DNA from: a virus
IMG/VR virus record: IMGVR_UViG_3300021375_001810
Length of the DNA stretch: 64,000 nt
Strand: one strand, 5' to 3'
Part shown: positions 13,829 through 64,000 of the stretch, one piece after another
Layout of the letters: every line of letters begins with the position of its first letter
How positions within the stretch are numbered: position 1 is the first letter of the stretch
Notes under the pieces: generated by a model
What the model was told of the DNA's origin: nothing
Seen by the model: the letters and a program-made list of their open reading frames with translations, nothing else
The model's database searches: none
Position numbers and translations under genes: made by a program

Positions 13829-14413
13829 ATGTATGTATTCGGAAACGGCGAAAGCCGATCAAAAATCAATATAGATTCCTTATCTGGACTAAAGTTTGGA
13901 TGTAATGCTATTATGCGTGATTACCAAATGGACCATTTAGTTTGTGTTGATCGAAGAATGGTTGACGAAGCCGTTAAATCTAACGCAAATCAACATACAA
14001 TAATTTATACCAGAGAAGATTGGATTCAAAGATACGAAGGTATTGAAAGAGTTCGAACAGTTCCTAAGTTACCCTACAACGGAATGACAAGACCCGACCA
14101 ACCGTTTCAGTGGGGGAGCGGACCTTATGCATTACTACTAGCCGCAATGAAGTCAAAAGGCGACATAGTTAGCCTAATAGGTTTTGATTTATATAGTAAA
14201 ACACAAAATGTTAATAATATATACAAAGGTACACCTAACTATGCTAAAGTAGAAAGCAGAAACATTGACCCAAGATATTGGATACATCAAATTGGTATGG
14301 TGTTTAAATGTTTTCCAAAAGTTAAGTTTAATATCTATCAAGATCGTTATTGGGAATTACCAGATTATTGGAATTTTTCCAATATTTCACTTGACAACCT
14401 AAACAATTTGTAA
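13829..14413 (+). CDS. CstII/Maf-like (DUF115-type) Rossmann glycosyltransferase-related protein
   Basis: VFGNGESR, GCNA, SG..A, LIGFD motifs. Confidence 0.6.
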   Translation: MYVFGNGESRSKINIDSLSGLKFGCNAIMRDYQMDHLVCVDRRMVDEAVKSNANQHTIIYTREDWIQRYEGIERVRTVPKLPYNGMTRPDQPFQWGSGPYALLLAAMKSKGDIVSLIGFDLYSKTQNVNNIYKGTPNYAKVESRNIDPRYWIHQIGMVFKCFPKVKFNIYQDRYWELPDYWNFSNISLDNLNNL

Positions 14414-14419
14414 TATAAT
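14391..14419 (+). promoter_or_regulatory. sigma70 promoter for queD
   Basis: perfect TTGACA-N17-TATAAT. Confidence 0.85.
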
Positions 14420-14430
14420 AACTATTATAC

Positions 14431-14478
14431 AGAGGACTTTAATACGTCGACCCTCTTTAAATACTCCGCCGTTATTTA
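14431..14478 (+). promoter_or_regulatory. candidate preQ-type riboswitch-like pseudoknot in queD 5'UTR
   Basis: AGAGG/CCTCT stem, A-containing tail, loop-tail complementarity next to RBS. Confidence 0.45.
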
Positions 14479-14492
14479 TATAGGAGAATAAC

Positions 14493-14972
14493 ATGGCTTA
14501 TTATAGCACTAAAACATACGGACACAACATCGGACTATCAGCGGTGTTCCGTCAACCTAAGGCAATGCATTCACATTGTCATTTACTTCATGGATATAGT
14601 TTACAGTTCAAATTTGTATTTGGATGTTCAGACTTAGATGAGAAAAACTGGGCGGTTGACTTCGGCGGATTGAAGCCGCTAAAGGCTTGGCTCGAAGATA
14701 GTTTTGATCACAAGACAGCAATTGATATTGCAGACCCAGAACTAGAAACTTTTAAAGCATTAGAAGAAAAAGGTCTAGCAGAGATTAGAACTTTTGATGG
14801 TGTTGGTTGTGAGAAGTTCGCATATCACGCATGGAAGTTTGCTGATGAACTTATTAGAGAAATTAGCGATGGACGTTGTTGGTGTGAATCAGCTGAATGT
14901 GCAGAGCATGGTGCTAATAGTGCAATCTATACACCATACTCAGTGCAAAAGATGTCACACGTAGATGGCTAA
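14493..14972 (+). CDS. queD: 6-carboxy-5,6,7,8-tetrahydropterin synthase (QueD/PTPS)
   Basis: C..LHGY, VDFGGLK, FDH, G.E, C-terminal E...NSA.Y. Confidence 0.9.
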   Translation: MAYYSTKTYGHNIGLSAVFRQPKAMHSHCHLLHGYSLQFKFVFGCSDLDEKNWAVDFGGLKPLKAWLEDSFDHKTAIDIADPELETFKALEEKGLAEIRTFDGVGCEKFAYHAWKFADELIREISDGRCWCESAECAEHGANSAIYTPYSVQKMSHVDG

Positions 14973-15777
14973 GACATATATACCAGGAGAAACAAAGGAG
15001 CAACGTAAAGCCCGTAAAGCAATTGAAAAGGGCCTTGCTACTAAAGTTGTTGCTGAAGAACGTAACACCAGCGACAGACGCTATATCCTTTGTCTAAAGC
15101 ACGGTCAGAAGTACTCTGCAGATTATGTAAACAAGTTATACAATATGACACAGCGTCATTGTACACTTGAACATGAATTTGTTTGTATTACTGAAGACCC
15201 TGCTTACCTCCTTCCTGGCATACAAACTATTCCTTTGCCAAAAGGTCTCGAAGGCTGGTGGAACAAGCCTTACATGTTTTCAAAAGACTTACCTATTAAC
15301 GGCACAATACTTTACTTAGATTTAGATGTTGTAATATCTTCCAATATAGATAAGTTGTTCACATACCAACCTGATCACTGGTGTACTGTTAGAGACTATA
15401 CTAGAGCAATGCGACCAAAGTGGCCTAAATATAACAGTTCTATTGTTAGATTTAAAACAGGACAGTTGGCACATGTATGGGACGAGTTTGAAAAGAATCC
15501 TAAAGAAGTTATGAGACAGCATTTTGGTGATCAAGATTGGTTATATGCTTCTACACGAAAACAACAAGCAATGCTGTATCCAGATAGTTGGACTCAGAGT
15601 TGGAAATGGGAAGTAAGAAAAAGTAGAGATTGGGCACCTGGAGGCAAAAGAGGCAGTCGAACATTTAGACTTATTGAAGATGTAGTTCCAAGAGTTGAAT
15701 GTTGCGTTGTAGTTTTTCATGGTGATCCAAATCCAGAAATGTGTAAAGATCCGTGGGTGGTAGAAAATTGGAAATAA
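14965..15777 (+). CDS. GT-A fold glycosyltransferase
   Basis: GWWNK, LYLDLDVVI (DxD), NSS, GDQDW, FHGDPNP. Confidence 0.85.
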   Translation: MAKTYIPGETKEQRKARKAIEKGLATKVVAEERNTSDRRYILCLKHGQKYSADYVNKLYNMTQRHCTLEHEFVCITEDPAYLLPGIQTIPLPKGLEGWWNKPYMFSKDLPINGTILYLDLDVVISSNIDKLFTYQPDHWCTVRDYTRAMRPKWPKYNSSIVRFKTGQLAHVWDEFEKNPKEVMRQHFGDQDWLYASTRKQQAMLYPDSWTQSWKWEVRKSRDWAPGGKRGSRTFRLIEDVVPRVECCVVVFHGDPNPEMCKDPWVVENWK

Positions 15778-16478
15778 AGAAACATTATATTTTTGACGTT
15801 GACGGAACACTAACGCCTAGTCGTAGAAAAATAAACGACGACTTTGCAGTGTTCTTTTCAGACTTTTGTGCTAACAATCTTGTATACCTTGTTACAGGTA
15901 GCGATAAAGAAAAAACAATAGAACAAATTGGAGAAGAAATATACAGTTTATGTGAACGTGTATATAACTGTTCAGGCTGTGATGTTTGGGAAGGCGAGTT
16001 TAACGTAAGATCAAAAGAATGGAGTTTGCCAGAAGTAGCAAGAAATTGGTTGCGTAAAGAAATACAATTATCAGAGTTTTGTTTACGTACAGGTAATCAT
16101 ATTGAAGAACGAGCAGGTATGGTTAACTTCAGTACTGTAGGACGCAATGCTACACTAGGTGAACGTAAGTTATATGTAGACTTTGATACAACGACAAACG
16201 AACGTAATAGAATTGCTAGAGAATTCAATTTACAATTTCCAGCAATGGAAGCCAAACCAGGTGGTGAAACAGGTATAGATATATCGCCAGTAGGTTGGGA
16301 TAAGAGCCAAATACTAGTTGATTTTGATCCTAAAGATGAAATATACTTCTTTGGTGATAGAATGGATAAAGATGGAAATGACTATCCACTTAAAAGAGAA
16401 ATCATTGACAAGGACCTAGGAATATGTTATAATATTAACAATTATAACGAAACATGGAATATATTAAAACATCTATGA
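15753..16478 (+). CDS. HAD-IIB phosphomannomutase (eukaryote-type PMM-like)
   Basis: FDVDGTLT, VTGSD, IEERAGMVNFS..GR, GG..GIDI.P.GWDK, FFGDR....GNDY. Confidence 0.88.
   Translation: MGGRKLEIKKHYIFDVDGTLTPSRRKINDDFAVFFSDFCANNLVYLVTGSDKEKTIEQIGEEIYSLCERVYNCSGCDVWEGEFNVRSKEWSLPEVARNWLRKEIQLSEFCLRTGNHIEERAGMVNFSTVGRNATLGERKLYVDFDTTTNERNRIAREFNLQFPAMEAKPGGETGIDISPVGWDKSQILVDFDPKDEIYFFGDRMDKDGNDYPLKREIIDKDLGICYNINNYNETWNILKHL
16405..16433 (+). promoter_or_regulatory. sigma70 promoter inside the PMM 3' end, upstream of uvsE
   Basis: perfect TTGACA-N17-TATAAT. Confidence 0.75.
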
Positions 16479-63459: not shown

Positions 63460-64000
63460 ATGCGTAAAGACTTAACAGCAGAACAAAATGACTATGCACA
63501 TTTTCTTCCAGCATTAAGTGGTTTTTATGCAACGTATGTAGGCAAGCAGAGATTTCTAGATCCTGTAAAAGGTCCATATATTGAAGATGCTCGTATACCT
63601 GCTAATTGGAATAATGGTGTAGAAAGTCTAAACTATCTTAATAAAAAAGAAGGTGCGTTTACATACAAGTGGACACTATATTCAGCAGGTCATGCTGACT
63701 TAGATACAAATAAAATCGTCCCAAAAGAAGATATGGTGCGTAATAGAGACAGAGCAAACACATGGATACTTGGAGACTCAGGTGGTTTCCAAATTGGTAA
63801 AGGTGTTTGGGAAGGAGACTGGAAAGATCCTAACTGTCCAAAGGCACAAAAGAAACGTGACGGTGTTTTACGTTGGATGGATGCATATATGGACTATGGT
63901 ATGGTCCTTGATATTCCAGCCTGGGTAGCACGTTCACCCGAAGGTGCAAAAGCCACTGGCATTAGTACATATGATGAGGCTGTAAAAGCAACACGTATAA
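63460..64000 (+). CDS. TGT/DpdA-family transglycosylase (partial, runs off window)
   Basis: open frame from ATG 63460; ILGDSGGFQ and MVLDIP motifs of the TGT fold. Confidence 0.8.
   Translation, partial: MRKDLTAEQNDYAHFLPALSGFYATYVGKQRFLDPVKGPYIEDARIPANWNNGVESLNYLNKKEGAFTYKWTLYSAGHADLDTNKIVPKEDMVRNRDRANTWILGDSGGFQIGKGVWEGDWKDPNCPKAQKKRDGVLRWMDAYMDYGMVLDIPAWVARSPEGAKATGISTYDEAVKATRI

Follow-up and report, generated by a model that had tools for sequence, protein, structure and literature searches.

RNA operators are used by T4-type phages, the pseudoknot in the gene 32 leader being among them. We know of no riboswitch class that is confined to phages, and a search of the literature for such a class found none. 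Guanidine-III riboswitches (ykkC-III, RF01763), which control guanidine exporters, are pseudoknotted ON switches acting on translation; their P1 has 4–5 bp and ends in GG, L1 starts with AC, the P2 strand has 6 nt, L2 closes with AC ahead of CC..., and L3 measures about 10 nt. The P1 helix of the B. subtilis queC preQ1-I riboswitch reads AGAGG/CCUCU, the same as in the leader analyzed here. According to a 2024 review, preQ1-I riboswitches are H-type pseudoknots in which a specificity cytosine, preceded by A or U, stands before the 3' strand of P1 and L3 is rich in adenines (PMC11625349). In phages, riboswitches are described as rare by a paper from 2022 (PMC9004378).

Here, we analyzed a stretch of marine phage DNA of 64,000 nt (IMG/VR record IMGVR_UViG_3300021375_001810, hereafter the window), in which the leader of a queD gene carries a member of an RNA family that is new and restricted to phages. 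The promoter of this gene is one of two within 10 kb that match the sigma-70 consensus at all 12 positions (promoter scoring). The second, with a TG extension, is located at 16405–16433, within the end of a PMM-like ORF and upstream of the UvdE gene. From the predicted transcription start at about 14426, the queD leader would extend about 67 nt ahead of the ATG at 14493, in line with the perfect promoter and short leader (about 65 nt) pointed out in the initial annotation. The AGAGG/CCTCT stem, loop, tail and AGGAG ribosome-binding site (RBS) described there are all present in the sequence, with the 3' end of the loop reading ...UCGAC and the tail starting with UUAAAUAC. The loop–tail pairing had been drawn between AAUACG (14441–14446) and CGU(U)AUU (14470–14476). 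These bases can indeed pair, but the AAU/AUU extension is peculiar to this member, and the helix with comparative support is formed by ACG-U-CG (14444–14449) with CG-C-CGU (14467–14472). No terminator-like feature was found 3' of the element. In metatranscriptome contigs from four runs, queD of close relatives is covered and the leader is not; as contigs cannot show 5' ends, this is neutral on the leader. A nucleotide search of the region against the cultured phages of INPHARED, in near and distant modes, gave no match, so no isolate with the element was found.

Table 1 Features of the queD leader and gene in the window (positions in the window; columns are those of alignment A1).
Feature	Position	Strand	Description
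Sigma-70-type promoter	14391..14419	+	TTGACA 14391-96, spacer 17 nt, TATAAT 14414-19; 12/12 matches
P1 5' strand	14431..14435	+	AGAGG; columns 3-7 pair with 27-31; 5 bp
L1	14436..14443	+	Column 8 onward; A-C-U near-invariant, then variable spacer
P2 5' strand	14444..14449	+	Columns 16-24; ACG (P2b), U (fixed mismatch), CG (P2a)
L2	14450..14451	+	Columns 25-26; A, then invariant C14451 directly 5' of P1 3' strand
P1 3' strand	14452..14456	+	CCUCU
L3	14457..14466	+	Columns 32-41; UUAAAUACUC; A-rich part, then invariant A38, U40, C41
P2 3' strand	14467..14472	+	Columns 42-50; CG (P2a), C (mismatch partner), CGU (P2b)
Alternative hairpin rivalling the knot	14468..14497	+	14468-14477 with 14486-14492 and 14495-14497; minimum-free-energy fold
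Ribosome-binding site	14482..14495	+	AGGAG 14482-86, AUG 14493-95 (sequence)
queD (6-carboxytetrahydropterin synthase family, phage CxxxHGY subtype)	14493..14972	+	PF01242 E 1.2e-11; phrog_2389 1.9e-37

P1 and the loop-to-tail helix P2 together make up an H-type pseudoknot (Table 1), with the strands interleaved in the order P1-5', P2-5', P1-3', P2-3' and covariation in both helices. Overall, P2 consists of 2 bp, a fixed U·C mismatch and 3–7 further bp. Its 5' strand follows the family consensus of a P2b of 3–7 nt, an invariant U and then C-R, and its 3' strand that of Y-G, C and P2b', which in the member of the window can be extended to 14476. The variable spacer of L1 has 2–8 nt across the family (0–6 nt in the consensus architecture), and the consensus of L3 is YUAAAYAYUC (alignment A1). 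About ten unpaired bases, clustered at the helix junction, are invariant, with the apparent invariance of some columns being inflated because the IMG/VR members were gathered partly by sequence pattern. At the junction, A8 is found in 100/105 sequences, C9 in 105/105 and U10 in 84, the others being alignment gaps; C26, which is C14451 in the window, is present in 105/105 and is preceded by A (57), U (33), C (14) or G (1). In one class, P1 has just 3–4 bp and L3 is shortened by 4 nt, as an H-type knot with L3 lying along the groove of P1 would require. A local GAC/GUC pairing within the loop was considered and dropped upon inspection of the alignment, as it is not kept across classes. In a subclass (L092, L098, L101, L104, L111, L127 and others) the spacer between knot and ATG is longer (31–45 nt) and contains the conserved blocks UCAUCAAACUU(A/G)CU ... 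GGAG(G/A)C(A/U)AGAG-AUG; here the start-codon sequence GAUGGC is a possible pairing partner of GUCAUC, and AAACUURCU is among the conserved blocks.

The structure was evaluated in alignment A1, which comprises 105 distinct sequences aligned with MAFFT and was in part gathered with pairing filters. In this alignment, 87% of the cells are paired in the pseudoknotted structure compared with 65% in shuffles, and the covariation score of 0.563 (0.171 when shuffled) is reached by 0/500 shuffles; slid registers of the structure all score far below the true one. P1 is paired in 93% of the cells, with pair 5-29 occurring as A-U (77), U-A (27) and C-G (1) and ten double changes at pair 4-30. In P2b, whose sequence is wholly different from class to class, the pairs nearest to the junction (19-47, 20-46 and 21-45) each occur as 4–5 pair types with 3–13 exceptions per 105 sequences. 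The R24-Y42 pair is A-U in 64 and G-C in 41 sequences, with 0/105 exceptions.

Due to the pairing filters, two unbiased checks were run. The first used 79 distinct pattern hits among the matches listed that were picked solely by the QueD-like ORF following them: the R/Y pair is A-U in 46 and G-C in 33 without a single mismatch, and all pairs of P1 and P2b are intact in 64/79, while pairing is random in 18 chance hits among the matches listed in the same scan. The second comprised 36 members obtained by protein homology alone, in which the five core pairs are intact in 36/36, two of these pairs being invariant. RNAalifold, run without a supplied structure, also predicts P2. Covariation across phage queD leaders, which the initial annotation had named as a check, is hence strong in both helices, and the conserved structure at homologous queD genes, on which its proposal had been made to depend, is found in about 150 related loci.

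Searching IMG/VR with the QueD protein yielded 80 loci, and about 55 of them carry the same element in the 110 nt upstream of queD, with differing sequences in the paired parts. A gene-blind pattern scan of IMG/VR returned at least 120 stretches, with about 100 clear members among the matches listed. Covariance model R1 detected one copy per locus at 32–63 bits in about 150 IMG/VR loci (105 distinct sequences), again among the matches listed. In the window, the model has one hit (14429–14477, 60.3 bits), and each of five whole records, which include phage genomes of 316 kb (91% complete) and 382 kb (100% complete), likewise contains exactly one. Nearly all of the family (152 members) have a QueD-type ORF within 90 nt downstream, which shares 27–100% identity with the QueD of the window; these QueDs include three with the canonical CxxxHGH motif, and 150 show CxxxHGY. 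A promoter with at least 10/12 matches ends 5–19 nt upstream of P1 in 62/103 distinct members (37 of them perfect), compared to 1/94 control windows, which places the element right at the start of the mRNA. A plain short leader without the element is found at some queD homologues. Among close homologues, this holds for L012, L024, L030, L038, L043, L064 and L069, where a strong TTGACA/TATAAT promoter is directly followed by the short leader; the element thus appears as an optional insertion between promoter and RBS. In 185,579 prokaryote species (one genome each), a strict pattern gave five hits, of which four are true members, all of them on MAG contigs in which translated matches to viral loci cover about 80%.

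The element is absent from Rfam. At gathering thresholds, Rfam 15 reports only tRNAs in the whole window, and no family fits the element at E≤10 in 141–301-nt scans of four sequence classes. For the PreQ1 family (RF00522; Rfam gathering threshold 39 bits) there was no hit at E≤10 in the four classes and none at the element in the five whole records; the sub-threshold match anticipated in the initial annotation thus did not appear, not even as a weak one. Two related records do contain weak RF00522 hits, located elsewhere than the element; the best of them (16.8 bits) falls inside the ORF of a structural protein. Further sub-threshold hits were set aside: LSU_trypano_mito is an AT-rich chance match, SCARNA15, SNORD110 and Yar_3 were judged to be chance, and freshwater-2 (16.3 bits, E 1.6) aligns just with the AAGGAGAAAACAnAUG ribosome site and not with the knot. 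Full-text searches of the literature turned up no description of an RNA motif in queD leaders or of a deazaguanine riboswitch in phages.

Weinberg and colleagues are said to have proposed in 2017 that riboswitches can be recognized by a location in the 5' UTR, a pseudoknot or multistem junction, several nucleotides conserved at 97% or more, and association with one metabolic gene. The element shows these features, with the exception of a spread over several bacterial phyla, being found in phages only. Judged by its sequence, it is a strong riboswitch candidate, and it is probably a new, phage-specific riboswitch.

The gene downstream of the element belongs to phrog_2389, which is annotated as 'QueD-like', and its match to TIGR03367 is weak. 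Its product shares about 50% identity with the QueDs of many cultured phages, including that of Pseudomonas phage Iggy (48%), which has the same CxxxHGY motif and is encoded in a FolE-QueD-QueC-QueE-DpdA cluster. PDB sequence searches with the QueD of the window and the 270-aa protein encoded downstream gave nothing useful. The neighbours of queD in the window are this 270-aa protein with a glycosyltransferase PHROG match, a PMM-like HAD protein and UvdE; as they are also common in related loci, they probably reflect synteny rather than function. The protein of about 270 aa (14965–15777) has 59 related ORFs and, among genes at the first two positions after queD, occurs most often; its sole matches are phrog_1962 'glycosyltransferase' and a faint Glyco_transf_8. 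In other phages, the genes after an element-bearing queD are varied metabolic add-ons: a DAHP/KDO8P-synthase-family enzyme, a JmjC-like protein, SAM synthetase, a radical-SAM/SPASM enzyme or an Fe-S assembly protein.

QueC, QueE, FolE and a recognisable DpdA were not found in the window. FolE and QueE are encoded in both near-complete element-bearing genomes and in two partial ones, and a QueC match above the Pfam cut-off was found in 0/5 of the element-bearing records searched. As the near-complete genomes have no QueC, these phages cannot themselves make preQ0 or preQ1. FolE and QueE without QueC fit a phiST-type pathway at the CDG level (Cui et al. 2023, PMC10516641). A 3'-open ORF at 63460–63999, without Pfam, PHROG or NCBIfam match, was considered as a DpdA-type transglycosylase. 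This was left unconfirmed, with no match by hhalign to the DpdA of phage Iggy and an unusable AlphaFold model (pLDDT 40). Its homologues in three related phage records (L208:348-1325(-), L209:408-2096(-) and L210:212-1750(+); 51–85% identity) lie 6–12 kb from folE and queE, and the family also occurs in PA5oct-like jumbo phages, where it is annotated as hypothetical.

With regard to the direction of switching, the P2 3' strand never contains the Shine–Dalgarno sequence (SD), which lies 5–30 nt past P2. Instead, this strand is complementary to the RBS in a class-specific manner, for example AAGUCAU to AUGACUU at the start codon, UGUCAU to AUGGCG, ACUCC to GGAGU or UCCU to AGGA. In the window, the bases sequestered by the alternative hairpin are the final G of the SD, the spacer, the G of AUG and codon 2. 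We computed RBS opening energies with P1 formed and averaged them over 100 members. The mean is 7.0 kcal/mol with the P2 3' strand free and 2.3 kcal/mol with this strand blocked, compared with 6.7 kcal/mol when an equal length of L3 is blocked as a control and 5.4 kcal/mol when the P2 3' strand is shuffled. For the window, the corresponding values are 7.26 (free), 1.06 (blocked) and 4.97 kcal/mol (shuffled), and 1/25 shuffles reaches the native opening energy (fraction 0.04). The fraction of shuffles that reach the native energy is 20% or lower in 64/100 members and 13/22 classes; in the sequence class of the window as a whole, the complementarity between tail and RBS is weak (shuffle fraction 0.50), though clear in the window itself. 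As the P2 3' strand pairs either with the loop or with the RBS, knot and RBS sequestration would be mutually exclusive, which predicts that the folded state is ON. Based on this nested-fold energy model, which ignores tertiary structure and kinetics, the ON direction can be assigned with moderate confidence overall and with low confidence for the class of the window.

The explanation we favor, and consider reasonably probable, is that the element (about 14426–14476 in the window, where the queD mRNA starts) represents a hitherto undescribed, phage-only family of H-type pseudoknots of about 45–50 nt, which controls translation of queD as an ON switch whose knot is held by a ligand. The invariant junction bases (A-C-U, C and A..UC at the end of L3) would be laid out as a small-molecule pocket like that of preQ1-I. 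A knot held shut, most likely by a ligand, would leave the RBS free and allow QueD to be made; upon opening of the knot, the tail would fold onto the RBS and translation would drop. Both the switching direction and the dependence on a ligand are inferred. Biosynthetic enzymes are not usually controlled by ON switches.

The invariant C makes ligands with a guanine-like face most plausible, as these could pair with it. The likeliest putative ligands would be a 7-deazapurine (CDG, 7-deazaguanine, preQ0 or preQ1), one of the pterin intermediates H2NTP and CPH4, or guanine. A more specific form of the favored reading, which we put forward tentatively, is that this phage-only class turns QueD ON for a putative ligand other than preQ1, namely H2NTP, CPH4, CDG, 7-deazaguanine or guanine; the latter might be released as deazaguanine is swapped into DNA. 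If true, the phage would time or pace the precursor for 7-deazaguanine DNA modification without QueC.

Given an SD outside P2 and a P2 3' strand that acts as an anti-RBS and predicts ON, it appears unlikely that the element is a diverged member of preQ1-I through which preQ1 or preQ0, as end products, would repress queD by feedback. The OFF control suggested by the initial annotation would thereby be reversed. The H-type topology, the AC/UC-like context of the invariant C and the A-rich L3 do all match preQ1-I, and the element is tied to a gene of the queuosine/7-deazaguanine pathway. Against this stand the missing score for RF00522 at E≤10 in four classes, the ACU of L1, the 2-nt L2 and the conserved U·C mismatch in P2, as well as near-complete element-bearing genomes without QueC.

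Alternatively, the knot could be a translational operator read by a phage or host protein, e.g. QueD itself or a RegA/gp32-style repressor. The downstream QueDs, which diverge to 27% identity and fall into two active-site subtypes, are encoded by phages ranging from T4-like to 382-kb jumbo phages, and such diversity makes a common protein partner less likely; in addition, the invariant bases are grouped at the helix junction, as in small aptamers. We therefore regard a protein operator as improbable, even though a single gene has the element at its RBS, T4-type RNA operators provide a precedent and the ligand of a riboswitch is so far only putative. A ligand-independent fold that keeps the RBS open, shields the mRNA at its 5' end or senses temperature or Mg2+ is very unlikely, as neither about ten invariant unpaired bases, the U·C mismatch nor the strict link to a single gene would be needed for it and many queD homologues do with a plain short leader, despite the position of the element a few nt from the predicted 5' end and a P2b that is long enough in some classes (6–7 bp) that no ligand may be needed to stabilize the knot.

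The riboswitch reading that we favor concerns an element that is abundant (>100 distinct sequences), linked to one enzyme of the 7-deazaguanine pathway and, with about 50 nt, short enough to be synthesised. If it binds a metabolite, it would represent a new deazapurine or pterin aptamer and the first ON-type switch in the 7-deazaguanine pathway, and phages would sense metabolites directly to regulate the supply of precursors for DNA hypermodification or queuosine. If a protein binds instead, a new phage translational operator would be defined. The element could also serve as an annotation marker of queD-bearing marine phages and as a compact regulatory part.

Among known RNAs, THF-II (the folE motif) and THF-I are small RNAs at the neighbouring pterin step that read a 2-amino-4-oxo-pyrimidine face and therefore offer a precedent for a pterin ligand; however, they are bacterial OFF switches built as a rod-like hairpin or three-way junction, and neither gave an Rfam hit for the phage element. 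The T4 gene 32 leader resembles it in that a T4-type phage mRNA begins with a pseudoknot controlling translation of the gene downstream. It differs in being a gp32 nucleation site without a conserved junction pocket, and sequence and gene context are unrelated. Guanidine-III has dimensions very similar to those of the queD-leader knot and the ON logic that is predicted for the phage element, but RF01763 gave no Rfam hit at E≤10, its conserved ACGAGG (GAGG)/CAGGAC is absent from alignment A1, and its association with guanidine exporter genes is unrelated.

The element also resembles preQ1-I. Both are H-type knots in the leader of a queuosine-pathway gene, with a P1 of about 5 bp whose loop pairs with the 3' tail; the invariant C of the phage family, mostly preceded by A or U, stands at the position of the specificity cytosine, and L3 is A-rich in both. 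In contrast, L1 starts with A-C-U in the phage family and with U or UU in preQ1-I, L2 has 2 nt instead of 4–6 nt, and P2 has 5–9 bp with a fixed U·C mismatch instead of 3–4 bp. The phage L3 contains AAA and the invariant A38, yet runs on with an invariant Y-U-C before P2, whereas in preQ1-I the last adenine of L3 contacts the ligand and the short P2 follows directly. Furthermore, preQ1-I is an OFF switch whose ligand-bound P2 hides the SD or favours a terminator, whereas the knot of the phage family does not include the SD and is predicted to act as an ON switch; the phage family is also found in phages alone and at queD alone. Of the preQ1-I-like variant first proposed for this leader, the conserved pseudoknot and its topology hold, while membership of the family does not, given the missing RF00522 match and the differing L1, L2 and P2. 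As L1, L2, P2, the end of L3 and the expression platform differ, we do not file the element under preQ1-I. Its build can be called preQ1-I-like, and its sequence would be compatible both with a common ancestry or ligand and with an independent origin.
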